From a phage, in assembly GCA_012439925.1 (NCBI GenBank), contig GCA_012439925.1_4519.1: a DNA stretch of 64,000 bases; one strand, given 5' to 3'. The position numbers were made by a program, and so were the translations under genes. The notes under the pieces are model-generated. The model ran no database searches. It had not been told where the DNA came from and saw only the letters and a program-made list of their open reading frames with translations. Below, one piece after another: positions 3,349 through 53,645 of the stretch; the stretch's first letter is position 1, and each line of letters opens with the position of its first letter.

Positions 3349-3774
3349 ATGGCTTTTAAAGGTTTTGAAGTTGGTAAGAAATATCATATTATCAAAGGTC
3401 AAGAAGATAATTTCTTGAGAATTCTTAATACGACTGGTAAACGTCTTAATACTAATCTGCATACTACTTTATTGTCCAAAGATTTTATTGTGGAAGAGAT
3501 GATTGGTTACGGTGTTTCGGTTATTGCTGTAGAAGCCGTAGGCGATTATGGCCGAACTATTCATAGTATGCAAGGTGATATTCTGCTTTATGGTGCAGAA
3601 TTTAAATTCTTTGAAGAAGTTCAGGAACCAGATACAGCTGTCGATTTCAAAAAAGGCTCTATAGAATTTGTTGATGGTTCGGTGATCGTATCAGGCGATG
3701 TGGTCATTACAGTTAAAAGTGAACAAGGGCGTTTGGCTGCAATTGATGCACTTCAGAAAATTAAATTTAAATAA
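3349..3774 (+). CDS. hypothetical protein (occupies the goF-like position upstream of gene 39)
   Basis: 141-aa ORF; assignment is by position and size only. Confidence 0.45.
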   Translation: MAFKGFEVGKKYHIIKGQEDNFLRILNTTGKRLNTNLHTTLLSKDFIVEEMIGYGVSVIAVEAVGDYGRTIHSMQGDILLYGAEFKFFEEVQEPDTAVDFKKGSIEFVDGSVIVSGDVVITVKSEQGRLAAIDALQKIKFK

Positions 3775-3795
3775 GGGCTTCGGCCCTTTTTGCTT
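3775..3795 (+). terminator. intrinsic terminator
   Basis: GGGCttcgGCCC hairpin followed by TTTTT. Confidence 0.65.
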
Positions 3796-3837
3796 TAGAT
3801 TTCGGATGATAGAATACCTTCATAACGAGGAGACAAC

Positions 3838-5655
3838 ATGATTAAAAATGAAATTAAGGTATTGTCAGATGTAGAACATATTAAGAAACGTAGTGGTATG
3901 TATATTGGTTCTTCTGCTAAAGAAGCCCACGAGCGTTTTTTGTTTGGTAAATATCAACAAGTTGAATATGTTCCTGGTCTGGTTAAATTAATCGATGAGA
4001 TTATTGACAACTCGGTTGATGAAGCTATTCGTACATCATTTAAGTTTGCAAATAAAATTGATGTGCAAATTAAAAATAATCAAGTTTCGGTGGAAGATAA
4101 CGGACGTGGTATTCCTCAAGGTTTAGTTACCGACCAAACAGGTGAACAAATTCCTGGGCCTGTAGCAGCCTGGACTATTCCAAAGGCCGGTGGTAACTTT
4201 GGCGATGACTCTGAACGCAAGACTGGTGGTATGAACGGCGTCGGGAGTAGTTTAACTAATATCTTCTCCACGTTGTTTACAGGCATCACGTCAGATGGTG
4301 AAAATGAAATCACTGTTAACTGTTCAAACGGAATGGAAAACAAATCATGGTCTTCTAAGAAATCTAAAGGTAAAGGCACTAAAGTAATCTTCACTCCTGA
4401 TTTCACTTCATTTGAAGAGCATAATTTATCTCAAATTTATTTAGATATTACTTTAGACCGACTTCAAACATTGGCAGTCGTTTATCCTGATATCAAGTTC
4501 ACATTTAATGGTAAAAAGGTTGATGGTAATTTTAAACGATTTGCTAAACAATTTGGTGAAGATAACATCATTCAAGAAAATGATAAAGTCTCTATAGCAT
4601 TCACAACATCACCAGATGGCTTCCGTCATTTAACTTATGTGAATAACATCCATACTAAAAATGGTGGTCATCATGTTGAATGTGTAATGGATGATATCTG
4701 CGAACATCTTTTGCCCGGTATTAAAAAGAAATATAAGGGTATTGAAGTCACTAAAGCTCGTGTTAAAGAATGTCTCACAATGTTGATGTTTATTAGAGAC
4801 ATGAGCAACATGCGTTTTGATTCTCAGACTAAAGAACGTTTAACGTCAACGTATGGTGATATTCGTAATCATATCCAATTAGATGCTAAGAAAATTGCTC
4901 AGGCGCTTCTTAAAAACGAAGCCTTGATTATGCCTATTGTTGAAGCAGCATTAGCTCGTAAATTGGCGGCAGAAAAGGCTGCAGAAACTAAAGCAGCTAA
5001 AAAGGCAACTAAAGCTAAGGTTCATAAGCATATTAAAGCTAACCAATGTGGTAAAGATGCAGATACGACATTGTTCTTAACAGAAGGTGATTCGGCAATT
5101 GGATATCTCATTGATGTTCGTGACCGTGAACTACACGGTGGATTCCCATTACGTGGTAAGGTGATGAATAGCTGGGGTATGTCATATGCTGATATGATGA
5201 AGAACAAAGAGCTCTTTGATATCTGTGCTATCACAGGTCTTATTCTTGGTGAAAAGGCAGAGAATACGAACTATCGTAATATTGCAATTATGACTGATGC
5301 CGATCATGACGGCCTTGGAAGTATTTATCCTGCTTTGCTTGCTTTCTTTAGTAATTGGCCTGAATTGTTTGAACAAGGACGTATTCGCTTTGTTAAAACA
5401 CCTGTAATTATTGCACAAATTGGCAAAACTCAAAAATGGTTTTATACTGTAGCTGAGTATGAAGAAGTTAAAGATACGCTGCCTAAGCATAGTATTCGAT
5501 ACATCAAGGGATTAGGCTCCCTTGAAAAGTCAGAGTATCGTGAAATGATTCAGAACCCTGTGTACGACGTAGTTAAACTTCCTGAAAATTGGAAAGAACT
5601 CTTTGAAATGTTGTTGGGTGATGATTCAGAACTTCGTAAAGAATGGATGTCCTAA
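3838..5655 (+). CDS. 39: DNA topoisomerase II large subunit (GyrB-like ATPase plus Toprim), single fused ORF
   Basis: 605 aa; GHKL ATPase motifs (DNSVDEAI, VEDNGRGIP) and Toprim (TEGDSA, MTDADHDG); T4 gp39 plus gp60 equivalent in one ORF. Confidence 0.9.
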   Translation: MIKNEIKVLSDVEHIKKRSGMYIGSSAKEAHERFLFGKYQQVEYVPGLVKLIDEIIDNSVDEAIRTSFKFANKIDVQIKNNQVSVEDNGRGIPQGLVTDQTGEQIPGPVAAWTIPKAGGNFGDDSERKTGGMNGVGSSLTNIFSTLFTGITSDGENEITVNCSNGMENKSWSSKKSKGKGTKVIFTPDFTSFEEHNLSQIYLDITLDRLQTLAVVYPDIKFTFNGKKVDGNFKRFAKQFGEDNIIQENDKVSIAFTTSPDGFRHLTYVNNIHTKNGGHHVECVMDDICEHLLPGIKKKYKGIEVTKARVKECLTMLMFIRDMSNMRFDSQTKERLTSTYGDIRNHIQLDAKKIAQALLKNEALIMPIVEAALARKLAAEKAAETKAAKKATKAKVHKHIKANQCGKDADTTLFLTEGDSAIGYLIDVRDRELHGGFPLRGKVMNSWGMSYADMMKNKELFDICAITGLILGEKAENTNYRNIAIMTDADHDGLGSIYPALLAFFSNWPELFEQGRIRFVKTPVIIAQIGKTQKWFYTVAEYEEVKDTLPKHSIRYIKGLGSLEKSEYREMIQNPVYDVVKLPENWKELFEMLLGDDSELRKEWMS

Positions 5656-46783: not shown

Positions 46784-46790
46784 TTTAATT

Positions 46791-46806
46791 GGGAGCTTCG
46801 GCTCCC
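46791..46806 (+). other. TTCG-loop hairpin directly upstream of an RBS (no U-tract)
   Basis: GGGAGCttcgGCTCCC followed by ACTGAGGAAATT-ATG. Confidence 0.5.
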
Positions 46807-46818
46807 ACTGAGGAAATT

Positions 46819-47433
46819 ATGTTTAAAGTTAATACTTTTTATAAAATGAATTTTAAAAATGGGGATATTACTCCACGCCTTAAAAACATGTTCTCATATG
46901 ACCTTATCGAGCCTTTTGAAGTTTTAGAAGTTACTGATGCTGGCTCAGTTTGTGAAATTAGAACTTCTGAAGGTAAAATTTATCAGGCTGGTGTTGGTAA
47001 ATTCAGTAATTGTTTTACTTTAATATTCTCGACTGATTTAGATGAGCATTTTATTGAATGTCCTAACCCTAAGGTCCATGAAGTTCCACAACAAGAAACT
47101 AAGAAAAATGGCCCGCATGAATATACGAAGGTTGAAACTCCTCACGGCGATATGTGGCGTCATAACTCTCCTTTCGGAAGTAAAGGAACATTTGCTCAAC
47201 TGCCTAAACCGTATGACGATGAAAAATACATCGTCGCCTTTTTATCTGAACAGGGTACTCAAGACCGTGGATGTCAACGAAGTGGTTTACTAAGTGAACT
47301 TGAAGCTCATAACCAAGCACGTGAATTCGTTGAGAAAAATCCTGGTTCTGAAGCTCTAGTCATGAAAGCAATTACTCAATATATCACTGCTCAACCTGTT
47401 GTTCATCCGGTAGAAATTAATTTCATTAAGTAG
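46819..47433 (+). CDS. hypothetical protein
   Basis: Start trimmed to MFKVNTFYK (RBS GAGGAAA); 204 aa. Confidence 0.5.
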   Translation: MFKVNTFYKMNFKNGDITPRLKNMFSYDLIEPFEVLEVTDAGSVCEIRTSEGKIYQAGVGKFSNCFTLIFSTDLDEHFIECPNPKVHEVPQQETKKNGPHEYTKVETPHGDMWRHNSPFGSKGTFAQLPKPYDDEKYIVAFLSEQGTQDRGCQRSGLLSELEAHNQAREFVEKNPGSEALVMKAITQYITAQPVVHPVEINFIK

Positions 47434-47463
47434 TTTACATCCAAGGACGGATTAGAGTATAAT
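47434..47463 (+). promoter_or_regulatory. T4-type early promoter
   Basis: GTTTAC 47434-47439, 18-bp spacer, TATAAT 47458-47463; similar to the cassette at 353. Confidence 0.55.
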
Positions 47464-47487: not shown

Positions 47488-47685
47488 ATGAAATTTTTAA
47501 TAGCACAAACAGTCCAATTAAAAGGTGTTGGAATTCCTGGGGTGATTTTTAAAGTTCTCCCTGAATTTAAAACCGCCGCTGGAATTATCAATGAAGCGTA
47601 TGCTGTTCAATGGGTTGATTGGACTTCTGACATACGTATGGGTAAAGAGTTATCTCCTATTAAAGGGTTGAAACATGTTGAATAA
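47488..47685 (+). CDS. hypothetical small protein
   Basis: 65-aa ORF. Confidence 0.4.
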   Translation: MKFLIAQTVQLKGVGIPGVIFKVLPEFKTAAGIINEAYAVQWVDWTSDIRMGKELSPIKGLKHVE

Positions 47686-47887
47686 ATTAATCCAGAAATT
47701 GTTAGGTATAGAAATGGTTGAAGTTACGTATCGTGTGACTGATGTAAGCCCATGGGCCCGAAAAGTTGAACCATATACTAAAACAATTAAAATGCTGAAA
47801 TATGACGGTGGATTATCTATCAAAGACCGTCTACCGGCTTATGGTCATTGGGCTGATGTTGAAATTATAAGTGTTAAAGATGTCTGA
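47675..47887 (+). CDS. hypothetical small protein
   Basis: 70-aa ORF overlapping its neighbours. Confidence 0.4.
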   Translation: MLNKLIQKLLGIEMVEVTYRVTDVSPWARKVEPYTKTIKMLKYDGGLSIKDRLPAYGHWADVEIISVKDV

Positions 47888-48338
47888 GTTAGAGATTAGA
47901 AGCAATTTTAGATGGCCGTCATGTGCATTAAGTAATTTTGCCCAGTGGCCTTTCGTTATGGATGGTATTCAATTCGGAGGTCTTGAAGGATTTCTCCAAG
48001 GATGTAAGGTGAAAAATGTTGAACAACAAAGACGTATATTTAGGCTGTCAGGACTGGCCGCACAGCAAGCTGGAAGGTCTTATGCAAGAGCTCAGGACCA
48101 TGGGACTCTCTTCTGGTTAGGAGTTCCATTTTCAAGATACTCTGAAGCATGGAAAGAATTATATACAAATGCATATTTTGAAGCAGCGATCCAAAACAAG
48201 GGGTTTCGCGATGCCTTACAAGCCTCTAAAGGAAAAATTTTGAAGCACAGCATGGCCAGCCACCTAACAAAAGATGATACAATATTAACTGAAGCTGAAT
48301 TTATTGATGTGTTAAACCTATTAAGAGACTCTTTATGA
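47871..48338 (+). CDS. NADAR (YbiA/DUF1768-like) domain protein
   Basis: 155 aa; LSNFAQWPFVMDG...GLEGFLQ resembles the E. coli YbiA core FSNFAAWPIKVDG...SEHYFQ. Confidence 0.5.
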   Translation: MLKMSELEIRSNFRWPSCALSNFAQWPFVMDGIQFGGLEGFLQGCKVKNVEQQRRIFRLSGLAAQQAGRSYARAQDHGTLFWLGVPFSRYSEAWKELYTNAYFEAAIQNKGFRDALQASKGKILKHSMASHLTKDDTILTEAEFIDVLNLLRDSL

Positions 48339-49159
48339 AGCCTACTATTTTGACTGATATTGATGGTGTATGTTTAAGCTGGCAATCTGGACTTCCTTAT
48401 TTTGCCCAAAAATATAATCTTCCATTAGAACATATTTTAAAAATGATTCAGGACGAAAAATTTATTTCTCCTGGTAAACTATTCAATACCGATGATAACC
48501 TCGGTAAACAATTAATAGAAAAATATAATCGCTCTGATTTTATTCGTTACTTAGCGCCTTATTCGGATGCTCTTCGAGTTATCAATAAACTAAAAGAAGA
48601 CTATAATTTTGTAGCCGTGACGGCGCTAGGTGATTCAATTGATGCTCGATTGAATAGACAATTTAATTTGAATGCTTTGTTCCCAGGCGCTTTCTCTGAA
48701 GTAATGATGTGTGGTCATGATTCTTCAAAGGAACAATTATTCGAACTAGCTAAAACAAAATACAACGTGATTTGTTACGTTGACGATTTAGCTCATCACT
48801 GTGACCATGCGGCAGAAATTCTTAATGTACCGATTTATTGGTTGGCTCGTGGTGAACGTGATGCTATTCCTCGTACTGCACAACGTGTACACACGTGGGA
48901 TGATATTGAATCTCGTTTGGTTCTGCCTAAGAATAATTCAGATTCAGATCGTGAAGACCTTTTAAAACGATTGGCGGATTTGCTTAAAGAATCTGGTGCA
49001 ACAAGTCCAGGTGCATGGCCTAATCAAATTGGTGGCCCCTCGACAACACGTACTCCATATACCTGGCGAACCCCAGGACCAACTGATATGCAGCCGTGGT
49101 GGACGATTCAAAACTTTCCTTTAGATTCGTCTAAATGGACTTGGTCTATAAATTGTTAA
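48335..49159 (+). CDS. HAD-superfamily hydrolase, possible 5'(3')-deoxyribonucleotidase, with unusual C-terminal extension
   Basis: 274 aa; HAD motif I ILTDIDGV and motif IV-like CYVDDL; C-terminal 80 aa are low-complexity and W/P-rich. Confidence 0.5.
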   Translation: MKPTILTDIDGVCLSWQSGLPYFAQKYNLPLEHILKMIQDEKFISPGKLFNTDDNLGKQLIEKYNRSDFIRYLAPYSDALRVINKLKEDYNFVAVTALGDSIDARLNRQFNLNALFPGAFSEVMMCGHDSSKEQLFELAKTKYNVICYVDDLAHHCDHAAEILNVPIYWLARGERDAIPRTAQRVHTWDDIESRLVLPKNNSDSDREDLLKRLADLLKESGATSPGAWPNQIGGPSTTRTPYTWRTPGPTDMQPWWTIQNFPLDSSKWTWSINC

Positions 49160-49168
49160 GGGTTAATT

Positions 49169-49438
49169 ATGTTTGTAGTTCATGATATTACAGATGGCAA
49201 AAATACCACACGTGACTACGGTCACGTTAACATGTTCTTTCGAGACTGGCCGGTGTTTCGTTCAGTAAAAGACGCAGAAATATTTAAAGAGTGTGTTGAA
49301 CAAGGGTTCATCTACATTTCAGAATATTATGTTGAAGGACTCGGTAAATGGATTACCACTTATCAGAAAACGCTGAAATCGCTTCTAGATGAAGTGGCTT
49401 ATAATAGAACCGTAACCAAAATCGAGGATATCAAATGA
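49169..49438 (+). CDS. hypothetical protein (30.x-like)
   Basis: 89-aa ORF whose stop overlaps the ligase start. Confidence 0.45.
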   Translation: MFVVHDITDGKNTTRDYGHVNMFFRDWPVFRSVKDAEIFKECVEQGFIYISEYYVEGLGKWITTYQKTLKSLLDEVAYNRTVTKIEDIK

Positions 49439-50928
49439 TTTTAGATATTTTAAACCAAATAGCTGCGATCGGTTCTACTAAAACAAAACAAGAAATCCTT
49501 AAGAAAAATAAGGACAACAAATTACTTGAACGTGTGTATCGTTTAACATATGCACGTGGTATCCAGTATTATATTAAGAAATGGCCAGGACCAGGTGAAA
49601 GGTCCCAAGCGTATGGTCTTCTTGAATTAGATGACATGTTGGATTTTATTGAGTTCACATTGGCCACTCGTAAACTCACCGGTAATGCTGCAATTAAAGA
49701 GCTCATGGGTTATATCGCTGATGGTAAACCTGATGATGTAGAAGTCCTTCGTCGTGTAATGATGCGCGACCTTGAAGTAGGTGCTTCAGTGTCTATCGCG
49801 AATAAGGTGTGGCCTGGACTTATTCAATTGCAACCACAGATGTTAGCATCTGCATATGACGAGAAATTGATTACTAAAAATATTAAATGGCCTGCATTTG
49901 CTCAATTAAAAGCAGATGGTGCTCGTTGTTTCGCTGAAGTTCGCGATGATGGTGTTCAATTCTTTTCTCGTGCCGGTAACGAATATCATGGTCTTACTCT
50001 ATTAGCGGATGAACTAATGGAAATGACTAAAGAAGCTCGTGAAAGACACCCTAATGGGGTTTTAATCGATGGTGAATTAGTTTATCATTCATTTGATATT
50101 AAAAAGGCTGTGAGCTCAGGAAATGACCTGTCGTTCTTATTTGGTGATAATGAAGAATCCGAAGAAGTACAAGTTGCAGACCGTAGCACTTCAAATGGTT
50201 TAGCAAATAAATCTCTTCAAGGGACTATTTCTCCTAAAGAAGCGGAAGGTATGGTTCTTCAAGCCTGGGACTATGTTCCTTTAGATGAAGTCTATTCTGA
50301 TGGCAAAATTAAAGGTCAGAAATACGATGTTCGTTTTGCTGCTCTTGAAAATATGGCTGAAGGCTTTAAGCGAATTGAACCAATTGAAAATCAGTTAGTT
50401 CGTAATCTTGACGAAGCTAAAGTGGTTTATAAAAAATATGTTGACCAAGGTCTTGAAGGTATTATCCTTAAAAACCGTGATTCATATTGGGAAAACAAAC
50501 GCTCTAAGAACCTAATTAAATTTAAAGAAGTTATTGATATCGCTTTAGAAGTTGTAGGATACTATGAACACTCTAAAGACCCTAACAAATTAGGTGGTGT
50601 CGAACTCGTATCACGTTGTCGTCGTATTACAACCGATTGTGGTTCAGGGTTTAAAGATACAACTCATAAAACAGTTGACGGTGTAAAGGTTCTTATTCCT
50701 TTAGACGAGCGTCATGATTTAGACCGTGAACGATTAATGACCGAAGCTCGTGAAGGTAAATTAATTGGACGTATCGCTGATTGTGAATGTAATGGTTGGG
50801 TTCATTCTAAAGGCCGTGAAGGTACTGTAGGTATTTTCCTTCCAATTATTAAAGGGTTCCGTTTTGATAAAACAGAAGCGGATTCATTTGAAGACGTATT
50901 TGGACCGTGGTCCCAGACAGGTTTATAA
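49435..50928 (+). CDS. 30: ATP-dependent DNA ligase
   Basis: 497 aa (T4 ligase 487 aa); adenylation motif region KADGARC; N-terminus matches T4 gp30 as recalled. Confidence 0.95.
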   Translation: MILDILNQIAAIGSTKTKQEILKKNKDNKLLERVYRLTYARGIQYYIKKWPGPGERSQAYGLLELDDMLDFIEFTLATRKLTGNAAIKELMGYIADGKPDDVEVLRRVMMRDLEVGASVSIANKVWPGLIQLQPQMLASAYDEKLITKNIKWPAFAQLKADGARCFAEVRDDGVQFFSRAGNEYHGLTLLADELMEMTKEARERHPNGVLIDGELVYHSFDIKKAVSSGNDLSFLFGDNEESEEVQVADRSTSNGLANKSLQGTISPKEAEGMVLQAWDYVPLDEVYSDGKIKGQKYDVRFAALENMAEGFKRIEPIENQLVRNLDEAKVVYKKYVDQGLEGIILKNRDSYWENKRSKNLIKFKEVIDIALEVVGYYEHSKDPNKLGGVELVSRCRRITTDCGSGFKDTTHKTVDGVKVLIPLDERHDLDRERLMTEAREGKLIGRIADCECNGWVHSKGREGTVGIFLPIIKGFRFDKTEADSFEDVFGPWSQTGL

Positions 50929-51116
50929 TGAAAGCTTATTTAGAAACAGTTATTGTAGCTAAGAAGGATGGTGGAGATGTTTCCACCTCTTGCTCTCAGA
51001 TTATATTAGATTTTCCTAATAACGATTCCTATAATATTTTTATGGACAATTTTGATAAGTACGAAAAAGGCCCTAATTTTGAAGTTTATCGTACTTTGCT
51101 TCCGATTGTGGATTAA
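50928..51116 (+). CDS. hypothetical small protein
   Basis: 62 aa from ATG overlapping the ligase stop (TAATG); followed by a terminator. Confidence 0.4.
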   Translation: MKAYLETVIVAKKDGGDVSTSCSQIILDFPNNDSYNIFMDNFDKYEKGPNFEVYRTLLPIVD

Positions 51117-51137
51117 GAGCCTTCGGGCTCTTTTTGG
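51116..51137 (+). terminator. intrinsic terminator
   Basis: GAGCCttcgGGCTC followed by TTTTT. Confidence 0.65.
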
Positions 51138-51151
51138 CATAAATATAAATT
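51138..51151 (+). promoter_or_regulatory. late promoter-like element upstream of alt
   Basis: CATAAATATAAATT contains near-consensus TATAAATA variants about 20-30 bp upstream of the alt ATG. Confidence 0.35.
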
Positions 51152-51171
51152 ATTACTAAAAGGAAAACACT

Positions 51172-53259
51172 ATGTCTGAACAAATAAACGAAGTGTTTGA
51201 ATCTGAAGGCAGTCTTCCTGTCGTCAATTTGAACCCTAAAGCTAAAGTTCCACAAGTCTGGAAAATTGGTGATATCGATACAAATATTGTAGTTCGTTTA
51301 TTCTCTTACCTTTCCGAAGGCGATGCTGTAAAACAAGTTAAACTCGGCGACAAATACGCTCATGTTGTTATTATGAGTCTGTCTGAAAAGGGTAATCTCG
51401 CTGAATTGAAAAATGGCCTTGGTCCTGCTCCTATTGATGCAATCAACACCATTTTCAATACAGTATATGAACAGGTTAAAGCTCTTCGTATGGATGCAGT
51501 TTTGTTCCGATTCCCTACCAAGAAATTGAAAGGACGTGGACAACAACTTCAAACTCTTCTTGCTCGTTTAGTTTCTACTAAAACTGGTGGTCGTTTTAAA
51601 GTATTGTCTGCAATGTATCAATTCACAGGTAAACACACATATGTGATGATGGTTCGTAAAAATGCCAACATTGAAGATATTAAAGGCATCCCTAACATTA
51701 ACACAGAGTTGTACACGAAAGTAGATTCTGATGTTGGTGAAGTTTATGTGAGTAAAAAGACTGGCGAAAAGGTCACCAAAGAAACGGCTATCGCTGGTTC
51801 TATTGCTGCTGTAGAAGAAAAACGTAAAGATAAGCCTGTTATTGCTCGTACTAAAATTTCTCGTCGCGCTATTGCCGCAAGTCAATCTTTAGAAGCTGAC
51901 CGCCAAGAAGGTGAGCTATTCCAGAAATACGAAAATTCTGCTAAAGAAGTTAGTGGCCCAGCTACAGCTGAATTACTTCCTGAAGCATATGAAATCGTAC
52001 TAGCCCAAGCATCGTCTACAGCAAAAGGCACTTTAGTTGCTGATATCGAAAATAAGATTTATAATCGTATTGATGAATCCTTTAGATTTGCTGATGAAGT
52101 TTCTTATGGTAGTGTTATTAAGCCGACTTTAGAAAAGTTTGCTAAGAAAATTAAAACCGAAAAAACAACATCTGTTAAAGCATTAGCTGCTTTTGTTGAA
52201 GCTGCAAACGAAATTGCAGACTCTATTAGAGACGAATGGTTTGAAGATTTTAGACGAGATAATTTCCAACTGGCTGATGACGTTTTAGCTGAAGTATCTG
52301 AAAAAACTTGGAAACAACGTAAATCAGCGTTCTTGACTAATGTGATGTATACTTATGCACGAGAATCGGCCAGAGGCACCTTTAATATAACAATGAATCG
52401 GGACCCTAAACAATACTCTATTGCCGAAAAACGAGCTATTCGTGAATATGCCTCTTCTGCATATACTGATATCAATAATATGTTGTTAGGACGTTATAAA
52501 CCGGATTTTTATGATGTTGCAGATGAAGATGAAGTTAAACGCGCTATTGATGGTCTTGATTCGGCGTTTTTAAATGGAGACCGTTTACCTGAAGGACTAA
52601 CGTTGTATAGAGCTCAGTCTATCAGAATGCCTATTTACGAAGCAATGGTTAAAAATAAGGTATTCTACTTCAGAAACTATGTTTCTACTTCACTAGCTCC
52701 TATTATTTTCGGCGGGTTTAAAGAGAACGTTGCCCTTGGACTTGCTCCTGAAGAAGTTCGCAAAGAGCTTAACATTGACAATAATGACGAAGGTGTTACT
52801 ATTTCTCCTAGTCAAGTAAGAACAGCTATGTATGCACCAGAACAAATCCGTGTTAACGTTGGATGGGCTATTGACGGCGCCCATAAAGTTAACGTGATTT
52901 ATCCAGGACAGTTGAGTAATCACCCTAATGAGCAAGAAATTATTTTGCCTAGAGGCATTCTCTTGCAGATAAATAAAATTACAGATGCGTCATCTGACAC
53001 TGGTGCAGGTTTAGAATCCAACCTTAAATTTATTCAAGCTGAAGTCATGTCCTCAGACCAGTTGGATGAAGCTGTCATTTACGATGGTGATGTTCTCATG
53101 GAAACAGGCGAGGTGGTTGCTATGACTGGTGAAATCGAATCGGATGAGCCGGTATCGTTCTCCTCATTTGTAGAAAAAACTAGTGCTCCTAAAGGATTGA
53201 AACTGTTAGCATCTTTAATGGATTTAGAATCGGTTCCGTTTAAATTTGTTCAAGGATAG
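51172..53259 (+). CDS. alt: Alt ADP-ribosyltransferase (virion-packaged)
   Basis: 695 aa (T4 Alt 682 aa); similarity to T4 Alt over the N-terminal half as recalled; ART-like C-terminal region. Confidence 0.85.
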   Translation: MSEQINEVFESEGSLPVVNLNPKAKVPQVWKIGDIDTNIVVRLFSYLSEGDAVKQVKLGDKYAHVVIMSLSEKGNLAELKNGLGPAPIDAINTIFNTVYEQVKALRMDAVLFRFPTKKLKGRGQQLQTLLARLVSTKTGGRFKVLSAMYQFTGKHTYVMMVRKNANIEDIKGIPNINTELYTKVDSDVGEVYVSKKTGEKVTKETAIAGSIAAVEEKRKDKPVIARTKISRRAIAASQSLEADRQEGELFQKYENSAKEVSGPATAELLPEAYEIVLAQASSTAKGTLVADIENKIYNRIDESFRFADEVSYGSVIKPTLEKFAKKIKTEKTTSVKALAAFVEAANEIADSIRDEWFEDFRRDNFQLADDVLAEVSEKTWKQRKSAFLTNVMYTYARESARGTFNITMNRDPKQYSIAEKRAIREYASSAYTDINNMLLGRYKPDFYDVADEDEVKRAIDGLDSAFLNGDRLPEGLTLYRAQSIRMPIYEAMVKNKVFYFRNYVSTSLAPIIFGGFKENVALGLAPEEVRKELNIDNNDEGVTISPSQVRTAMYAPEQIRVNVGWAIDGAHKVNVIYPGQLSNHPNEQEIILPRGILLQINKITDASSDTGAGLESNLKFIQAEVMSSDQLDEAVIYDGDVLMETGEVVAMTGEIESDEPVSFSSFVEKTSAPKGLKLLASLMDLESVPFKFVQG

Positions 53260-53288
53260 TTTACAAGCACATGGATGTGTGATACTAT
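53259..53288 (+). promoter_or_regulatory. T4-type early promoter
   Basis: GTTTAC 53259-53264, 18-bp spacer, TACTAT 53283-53288. Confidence 0.55.
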
Positions 53289-53317
53289 CATCCTATCAAC
53301 AACATGAGGAAAACGTT

Positions 53318-53611
53318 ATGAAATCTATGCTTCGCTTTAATGGTCAAGAACTAGTAGTTGAAGATGCTATCCCAGCGGATGATGTTTTTAACGAAGCTGT
53401 GATTGACGAATTGAATCGAGTATTCCCAGGTGCATTCCATATTGCTATGGAACCTCTTAAAAACTTTCGTGACCCTGAACACACTGATCAAATTTTTATC
53501 GGTGTACTGACAGGTCATTTAGAAACAGAGGTACCAATGGTCGTATTAGTTAAATACTCTAAAGATGATACTCCATTCCGAGCACCAGCATTTCTTTCAT
53601 TCCGTAAATAA
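53318..53611 (+). CDS. hypothetical protein
   Basis: Start trimmed to MKSMLRFNG (RBS GAGGAAA); 97 aa; followed by a terminator. Confidence 0.5.
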   Translation: MKSMLRFNGQELVVEDAIPADDVFNEAVIDELNRVFPGAFHIAMEPLKNFRDPEHTDQIFIGVLTGHLETEVPMVVLVKYSKDDTPFRAPAFLSFRK

Positions 53612-53620
53612 ACCCCTAAA

Positions 53621-53645
53621 GGGAGACGTTGTCTCCCTTTTTCTT
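53621..53645. terminator. bidirectional stem-loop terminator between convergent genes
   Basis: GGGAGACgttGTCTCCC followed by TTTTT on plus strand; lies between plus-strand ORF 53318-53611 and the minus-strand gene 54 end. Confidence 0.6.

Follow-up and report, generated by a model that had tools for sequence, protein, structure and literature searches.

The 64,000-nt stretch of DNA analyzed here (the window) is T4-like coliphage DNA of the Tequatrovirus type. Its genes follow the T4 order 30.5, 30.4, 30.3, 30.2, 30.1, 30 (DNA ligase), alt.1, and alt. Around 30.3 and 30.2, a 2.1-kb stretch shares 99.5% identity with Escherichia phage TH12 and has matches in 736 phage records. An earlier note, made from the sequence alone, had described two overlapping open reading frames at 47871-48338 (ORF 1) and 48335-49159 (ORF 2), and had placed them about 3 kb upstream of the Alt ADP-ribosyltransferase. 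Both frames are present as described, with only the first start codon corrected, and the position of Alt is confirmed. The region contains the following features.

47434..47463, + strand: candidate sigma-70-like promoter (TTTACA-18-TATAAT) in the gap before 30.5; 11 of 12 consensus positions match, the best in the region
47675..47887, + strand: gene 30.4 (70 aa); 8-nt overlap between its stop and the adfN start; PHROG 2042, E 6e-34
47880..48338, + strand: gene 30.3 (adfN), an intact full-length allele for a 152-aa NADAR-fold DNA ADP-ribosylglycohydrolase (anti-DarTG1 factor)
47931..47966, + strand: NADAR core motif S18-N-F-A-Q-W-P-F-V-M-D-G29 of gene 30.3, with L17 just before it; aligns with SNFAAWP..DG of E. 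coli YbiA
47985..48008, + strand: catalytic E36 (47985-47987) to K43 (48006-48008), E-G-F-L-Q-G-C-K; the same residues in T4
48246..48248, + strand: His123 of gp30.3 (model strand 120-123, the last beta-strand), the residue that distinguishes the gp30.3 clade of phage NADARs
48291..48332, + strand: C-terminal helix of gp30.3, residues 138-151 of the predicted model; the RB69 frameshift site lies at the start of this helix
48335..48338, + strand: ATGA overlap of the 30.3 stop and the 30.2 start; the same in T4, and an arrangement that allows translational coupling
48335..48919, + strand: catalytic core of gene 30.2 (aa 1-195), a C1-capped HAD-superfamily phosphatase
48356-48364, + strand: HAD motif I of gene 30.2, D8-x-D10 (D8-I-D10-G-V)
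48620-48622, + strand: HAD motif II, T96
48728-48730, + strand: HAD motif III, K132
48782-48787, + strand: HAD motif IV, D150-D151
48920..49159, + strand: tail of gene 30.2 (aa 196-274 and stop), with one predicted helix (203-219) followed by a disordered P/W/T-rich stretch
51172-53259: Alt, with an ADP-ribosyltransferase domain (PF03496, E 3e-28), starting 3.3 kb downstream of 47871

The promoter candidate may mark the start of a 30.5-30.4-30.3-30.2-30.1-30 transcription unit. No terminator-like sites were found on the + strand from this candidate to 53618, and the total count of sigma-70-like sites in the region is not above the shuffled expectation. Relatedness to reference phages differs between neighboring genes. 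Specifically, RB69 proteins are 97% (gp30.2), 97% (gp30.1), 99% (ligase), and 92% (Alt) identical to those of the window, whereas the corresponding T4 proteins are 68%, 56%, 65%, and 42% identical, and the window gene 30.4 product shares 46% identity with that of T4. The block from 30.2 to alt is RB69-like by these identities, and the phage looks like one with an RB69-type locus that carries an intact adfN.

Gene 30.3 and the NADAR fold

The gene 30.3 product (gp30.3) matches the Pfam family PF08010 (Phage_30_3) with an E-value of 2.9e-69 and a score of 231.7 bits against a cut-off of 36, which puts the match of ORF 47871-48338 far beyond chance. The GTG listed as its start, at 47871, lies 9 nt too far upstream, and the true start is almost certainly the ATG at 47880. 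This ATG yields 152 aa as in T4, places E36 and K43 at their published positions, and gives the same 8-nt overlap with the 30.4 stop as in T4. In an end-to-end alignment, 146 of the 152 residues (96%) are identical to T4 gp30.3, and positions 1-54, which include E36 and K43, are all identical. The six substitutions between the window and T4 AdfN are G55R, R74H, P89E, V120I, I125M, and G128H, none of which falls at a family-invariant position. Across 64 members of the gp30.3 family, S18, N19, F20, F25, E36, G37, F38, Q40, and His123 are invariant, and D28, G29, and K43 are nearly invariant.

The assignment of ORF 1 to the NADAR superfamily had been made from an SNFAxWP..DG core like that of YbiA. 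The core is present, aligns with the YbiA motif, and belongs to a protein with a NADAR fold in the predicted model. The Pfam profile comparison gives a divided answer: PF08010 is matched strongly, but the window protein itself has no match to the Pfam NADAR model PF08719 at E <= 1. Pfam models the phage NADAR clade separately, as PF08010, and 26 of the 64 gp30.3 family members match PF08719, the best with an E-value of 1.5e-7. In a sequence search of PDB chains, YbiA is the sole match to gp30.3, a marginal one over the SNFAxWP..DG motif (E 0.34 with the single sequence, 0.0058 with the family profile). No NCBIfam model reached its threshold, and TIGR02464 matched weakly at E 0.13.

Because the PDB sequence matches of both gp30.3 and the gene 30.2 product are only marginal, the two proteins called for fold comparison. 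The AlphaFold model of window gp30.3, built on 64 relatives, has a pLDDT of 92.4, and a fold search with this model confirms the NADAR fold. The NADAR active-site residues E36, K43, and H123 are all present, and the structural and active-site comparison suggested earlier thus comes out in favor of the assignment. Membership of gp30.3 in the NADAR superfamily rests on this fold, on its relatives, and on published work. The phage NADARs, termed "gp30.3 proteins", are defined by a last-strand His, a position occupied by Glu in YbiA and by Asp in DarT-linked NADARs (PMC11125620).

Function of AdfN and the allele in the window

Gene 30.3 has been renamed adfN, for anti-DarT factor NADAR (PMC11825919). 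Experiments from 2024-2025 showed that AdfN reverses the ADP-ribosylation of guanine and that it is both necessary and sufficient for DarTG1 resistance in T-even phages. T4 and T2 without adfN form no plaques on DarTG1 cells, while RB69 is rescued on them by plasmid-borne adfN alone, and the resistant chimeras have in common, as minimal transferred region, the 3' part of 30.3 (PMC11825919). DarT1-modified DNA loses its ADP-ribose with purified AdfN and not with the E36A variant; E36A, K43A, and C-terminal truncation each weaken T4 AdfN, and E36A abolishes its in-vitro activity (PMC11825919). AdfN does not bind DarT1 and is ineffective against DarTG2, which modifies thymidine (PMC11825919). In an independent study, T4 gp30.3 hydrolyzed guanosine-ADP-ribose on DNA in vitro (PMC11125620), and the NADARs tested hydrolyze guanine-linked, not thymidine-linked, ADP-ribose on DNA (PMC11125620, PMC11825919). 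In a published T4 transposon screen, insertions in 30.3 were lost only under DarTG1, with a log2FC of -7.25.

The earlier note had proposed that the NADAR frame counters DNA ADP-ribosylation of the DarT type, and this is right for the 96%-identical T4 gp30.3/AdfN (PMC11825919, PMC11125620). The anti-DarT function of the NADAR protein is already known, having been published in 2024-2025, and current understanding is unchanged by the analysis of this locus. The sequence alone was enough for a reader to arrive at a function whose demonstration had required chimeric-phage genetics. ORF 1 of the window is very probably adfN, serving DarTG1 counter-defense of the AdfN type, with the gene 30.2 product a separate HAD phosphatase outside that mechanism. 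The identity to T4 AdfN, the intact catalytic residues, and the full length of the window allele suggest that it acts as the T4 protein does.

In the mechanism proposed for the window phage, infection of a DarTG1 host would free the DarT1 toxin, and freed DarT1 would ADP-ribosylate guanine bases of the phage DNA and block its replication. AdfN, made early as a small NADAR-fold N-glycosidase, would cut ADP-ribose off the guanines and restore replication. Its active center would be formed by Glu36, Lys43, and the clade-specific His123, and the C-terminal helix would be required for full activity. For the 96%-identical T4 protein, every part of this mechanism has been demonstrated.

The C-terminal helix distinguishes the window allele from that of RB69. 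RB69 gene 30.3 contains one extra T at about nucleotide 411 of the gene, so that the protein ends at 137 aa and the last helix is lost, and RB69 is DarTG1-sensitive (PMC11825919). This sensitivity is attributed to the loss of the last AdfN helix through the frameshift. The RB69 annotation also ends gp30.3 at 137 aa. In a DNA alignment of the two phages, the extra T occurs in RB69 only, and the window gene reads straight through to ...EAEFIDVLNLLRDSL, the segment that forms helix 138-151 of the model. Since an intact adfN lies in an RB69-type locus, the window phage is predicted to resist DarTG1. With its RB69-type 30.2-ligase-alt block and intact adfN, it would be expected to form plaques on DarTG1-carrying E. 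coli, on which RB69 forms none; this prediction is useful for choosing or engineering therapeutic T4-like phages.

T4 AdfN does not neutralize DarT1 in uninfected cells, and it rescues non-T-even phages only weakly (PMC11125620, PMC11825919). From these limits, the authors of PMC11825919 suspect an additional T-even factor. In the T4 screen under DarTG1, gene 30.4 was partly depleted (log2FC -1.79, adjusted p 0.014) and was the only other gene of the neighborhood significantly so. Homologs of 30.4 lie upstream of gp30.3 in 13 close T-even loci only, with the 8-nt overlap in each, and when the region upstream of divergent NADAR genes was searched iteratively, no gp30.4 relatives turned up beyond the close T-even phages. 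Gene 30.4 probably matters for adfN expression. The simplest explanation of its depletion is lower adfN translation through the 8-nt overlap; the authors of the transposon screen, however, argue that polar effects are rare in their data. A role for 30.4 as a T-even-specific helper for full AdfN activity is unlikely.

The gene 30.2 phosphatase and other readings of the locus

In its predicted structure, the gene 30.2 product (gp30.2) combines a Rossmann-like HAD core and a cap domain. The HAD motifs DIDGV and YVDDL, which the earlier note had seen in ORF 2, are real, and motifs II and III were also found. D8, D10, K132, D150, and D151 are the same in all of 65 gp30.2 sequences, and T96 is nearly invariant. 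The model has a core pLDDT above 90 and places the catalytic residues at the ends of strands 4-7, 91-96, and 145-150. A helical insert of residues 16-86 directly follows motif I and constitutes a C1 cap. Gp30.2 matches PHROG 420 with an E-value of 4.6e-78. The four motifs, the modeled core, and the cap support the HAD assignment, but profile searches with the window protein itself do not: it reaches 15.5 bits against Pfam HAD_2, below the cut-off of 23.8, leaving no significant HAD sequence match, and it has no match to Pfam NT5C (PF06941). Thirteen of its 65 relatives match NT5C weakly, with a best E-value of 0.002.

A Foldseek search with the gp30.2 model gave a probability of 1.0 for the listed HAD structures. 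The best target-normalized TM-scores belong to proteins of the 5'(3')-deoxyribonucleotidase type, at 0.69 (3bwv), 0.65 (1mh9), and 0.64 (4yih). The structural match to NT5C-type proteins is good but not unique. At the sequence level, the PDB search returned a marginal deoxyribonucleotidase match (E 0.5). A helical C1 cap usually limits HAD enzymes to small substrates, and capless end-healing phosphatases score lower in structural comparison with gp30.2 than capped small-molecule phosphatases. The substrate of gp30.2 is most likely a small phosphomonoester, with a (deoxy)nucleoside monophosphate as the leading candidate. In the proposed mechanism, gp30.2 would be a separate, Mg-dependent phosphatase of the HAD type whose cap is helical. 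A literature search on gene 30.2 found no study of the gene.

The odd W/P-rich tail that had been described in ORF 2 is also real, with 6 W, 8 P, and 9 T in the final 54 residues. The model pLDDT is below 50 in most of residues 231-258. The tail is absent in 20 of the 65 relatives and exceeds 50 aa in 38 of them. The window and RB69 tails are almost identical, while the DNA of the window tail shares about 45-55% identity with that of the T4 tail. A frameshifted T4 tail was considered and rejected, as the DNA itself is diverged to this extent and no alternative frame matches. The tail was found in 150 phage records, always within 30.2, and in no other gene among them. It is an optional, hypervariable extension, present here as an RB69-type allele.

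The genomic setting of 30.2 raises the possibility that gp30.2 serves DNA ligase, either as an end-healing phosphatase or by clearing a ligase-related nucleotide. In 69 of the 76 loci anchored on 30.2, the ligase gene follows downstream at a distance below 1.5 kb, and these loci span T4-like phages that have diverged widely. However, gene order is generally conserved in the T4-like family, so this adjacency is weak evidence for a shared function, and the C1 cap, together with the lower scores of capless end-healing phosphatases, argues for small substrates. Ligase is essential, yet T4 tolerates insertions in 30.2 fully, at 72 of 72 sites. A role in service of ligase is accordingly improbable. 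The same transposon data show 30.2 to be non-essential on K-12 and neutral in LB versus M9, a dispensability that holds only for the conditions of the T4 screens. There is a small chance that gp30.2, with its swappable disordered tail, is a counter-defense or nucleotide-pool enzyme with a phenotype only on other hosts.

A joint function of 30.3 and 30.2 had also been put forward, with the two genes as a translationally coupled pair and a counter-defense module. The ATGA overlap is real. T4 has it too, as does every close T-even locus, 30.2 beginning there at the final base of the 30.3 match. In such a module, the NADAR protein would free ADP-ribose and the HAD protein would destroy or recycle the product, or would be the missing T-even factor suspected to be needed for full T4 AdfN activity. 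In other viruses, NADAR and Macro domains occur fused to phosphatase domains, for which a role in processing the breakdown products of ADP-ribose has been suggested. However, in the T4 screen under DarTG1, insertions at 71 sites in 30.2 were neutral (log2FC -0.12, p 0.61), whereas those in 30.3 were lost. Rescue of RB69 by plasmid adfN alone and the mapping of the chimera region to the 3' part of 30.3 also speak against a part for 30.2.

Comparative genomics likewise stands against a conserved pair. A 30.2 homolog lies within 10 kb in 22 of 80 viral contigs anchored on a NADAR gene and is absent from that range in the other 58. In the 76 loci anchored on 30.2, a NADAR gene occurs within 10 kb in 36 and directly abuts 30.2 in 21. 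In a Klebsiella Jiaodavirus, the NADAR gene is found among tRNA genes, 59 kb from 30.2, and in a Rhizobium phage it is found between structural and helicase genes. Across phages, 30.2 stays with ligase, while the NADAR gene moves elsewhere. Together, the T4 genetics and comparative genomics mark the ATGA junction as a feature of the T-even lineage and not as a conserved functional pairing. The two-gene module for DarTG1 is already largely refuted and is very unlikely, and both the T4 screen and synteny led to the rejection of gp30.2 as the T-even factor for AdfN. Despite the transcript and ATGA junction that it has in common with adfN in T-even phages, gp30.2 is not part of the anti-DarTG1 mechanism.

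It had further been suggested that the NADAR protein buffers by-products of the phage's own ADP-ribosyltransferases, that is, that it protects the phage from Alt, ModA, and ModB by removing stray ADP-ribose adducts or soluble by-products. Alt is encoded only 3.3 kb downstream, and earlier comparative work described the NADARs of T4-like phages as early genes near, and expressed alongside, ADP-ribosyltransferases, so the adjacency is not new. However, T4 with alt, modA, and modB present can do without 30.3 on K-12 (insertions tolerated at 27 of 28 sites), and 30.3 is neutral in the comparison of LB with M9. The sole strong phenotype of 30.3 is under DarTG1, where insertions in alt, modA, and modB have none. 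Tested NADARs act on guanine-linked and not thymidine-linked ADP-ribose on DNA; the T4 annotation describes Alt as modifying proteins. In most phages, moreover, the NADAR gene is not near alt. The suggestion finds no functional support and is highly improbable. It is extremely unlikely that gp30.3 is a YbiA-like metabolic N-glycosidase for riboflavin-pathway intermediates and not a DNA repair enzyme: YbiA is its only sequence-level PDB match and TIGR02464 matches weakly, but both matches are far below curated thresholds, the last-strand residue is His and not the Glu of the YbiA family, and direct genetics and biochemistry tie the T4 ortholog to the removal of ADP-ribose from DNA.

Comparison with known systems

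The reading of the locus as adfN beside a separate HAD phosphatase can be set against four groups of characterized proteins and phages. Gp30.2 resembles HAD-IA phosphatases, especially 5'(3')-deoxyribonucleotidases of the NT5C type (3bwv, 2jao, and 1mh9), in its four HAD motifs, with the DxD typical of phosphatases, and in its helical C1 cap. It differs from them in having no significant sequence match and in carrying a 79-aa hypervariable tail.

The DarG1-type NADAR antitoxins, such as the Geobacter lovleyi NADAR (PDB 8bat), together with PnNADAR (8bau) and E. coli YbiA (2b3w), share 13-21% identity with gp30.3. Unlike these NADARs, window gp30.3 lacks an N-terminal extension of the fold and has a last-strand His where they have Asp or Glu. 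In contrast to the DarG1-type proteins, it is encoded by an orphan gene without a DarT partner, and T4 gp30.3 cannot serve as an antitoxin in uninfected cells.

T4 gp30.3/AdfN is similar in its 96% identity over 152 aa, in E36, K43, and H123, in its C-terminal helix, and in the place of its gene between 30.4 and 30.2 with 8-nt and 4-nt overlaps. The differences from T4 are the six gp30.3 substitutions and flanking genes that are not T4-like, with 30.4 at 46% identity and 30.2 through alt resembling RB69. RB69 itself has nearly the same 30.2-alt block as the window, but its gp30.3 is truncated, whereas that of the window has the full 152 aa.

Relocation of the NADAR gene

3501-3950 of the Klebsiella phage vB_VIPKPNUMC01 genome (L158, a Jiaodavirus): gp30.3-type NADAR gene

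In this Jiaodavirus, the NADAR gene is surrounded by a tRNA gene cluster, and the 30.2-ligase block lies 59 kb away. This placement shows that the NADAR gene has moved between T4-like lineages.

Gene 30.4 and the alternative frame at adfN

47675-47887: gene 30.4, its 3' end overlapping adfN
48016-48243, + strand: ORF 30.3', in an alternative frame within gene 30.3

In the window, the stop of gene 30.4 and the start of adfN lie within an 8-nt overlap. In a published T4 transposon screen, 30.4 was significantly depleted under DarTG1 selection (log2FC -1.79, adjusted p 0.014), ranking second in the adfN neighbourhood behind adfN itself. Homologues of 30.4 are found upstream of the NADAR gene in close T-even phages only, and gp30.4 of the window is 72% identical to its RB69 counterpart but only 46% identical to that of T4. 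The depletion under DarTG1 would reflect either translational coupling of 30.4 to adfN or a genuine helper function for AdfN. The 30.3' frame is annotated in T4 as a 75-aa ORF, whereas in the window phage it meets an in-frame stop at codon 35 and is therefore not conserved; it is probably not a real gene.

Boundaries of the 30.5-alt block

46789-47433, + strand: 214-aa ORF, PHROG 17531 (E 1e-145)
47434-47463: sigma-70-like promoter candidate, TTTACA-18-TATAAT, near-consensus (11/12)
53246-53611, + strand: alt.-3-like ORF, Pfam DUF5498 (E 8.5e-24)
53618-53640: strong terminator-like hairpin, 10-bp stem followed by a T run

The promoter candidate occupies the gap preceding gene 30.5, while the hairpin separates the convergent alt.-3-like ORF and gene 54. 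Between these two elements, the + strand holds no terminator-like sites except weak intragenic ones. The 214-aa ORF, which had no match in a Pfam search, stands where T4 carries the 95-aa gene 30.6. Because its PHROG match starts at residue 11, translation probably begins at the ATG at 46819 rather than at the listed TTG. The alt.-3-like ORF is the only such ORF downstream of alt in the window, in contrast to T4, where the duplicated fragments alt.-1 and alt.-2 are annotated; neither was seen here. Its listed TTG start, which overlaps the alt 3' end, is likely too far upstream, since the DUF5498 match runs from residue 25 on.

Tail motifs and the mosaic locus

In an alignment of gp30.2 relatives (A1, columns about 410-440), most long tails share W-(R/K)-(T/S)-P-G, and many share G-(T/G)-G-I-E-Y-L-x-x-(Q/R)-P-T close to the C-terminus. 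The latter motif is present in the T4 tail but absent from the window tail. These hints suggest that the otherwise variable tail may hold a conserved short linear binding motif.

By sequence comparison with RB69 and T4, window 48335-53611 is a mosaic locus. Identities of the window proteins to RB69 and T4, respectively, are 97% and 68% for gp30.2, 97% and 56% for gp30.1, 99% and 65% for ligase, and 92% and 42% for Alt, the window Alt allele being strongly divergent from that of T4. AdfN is nearly equally close to both phages. RB69 is a Mosigvirus.
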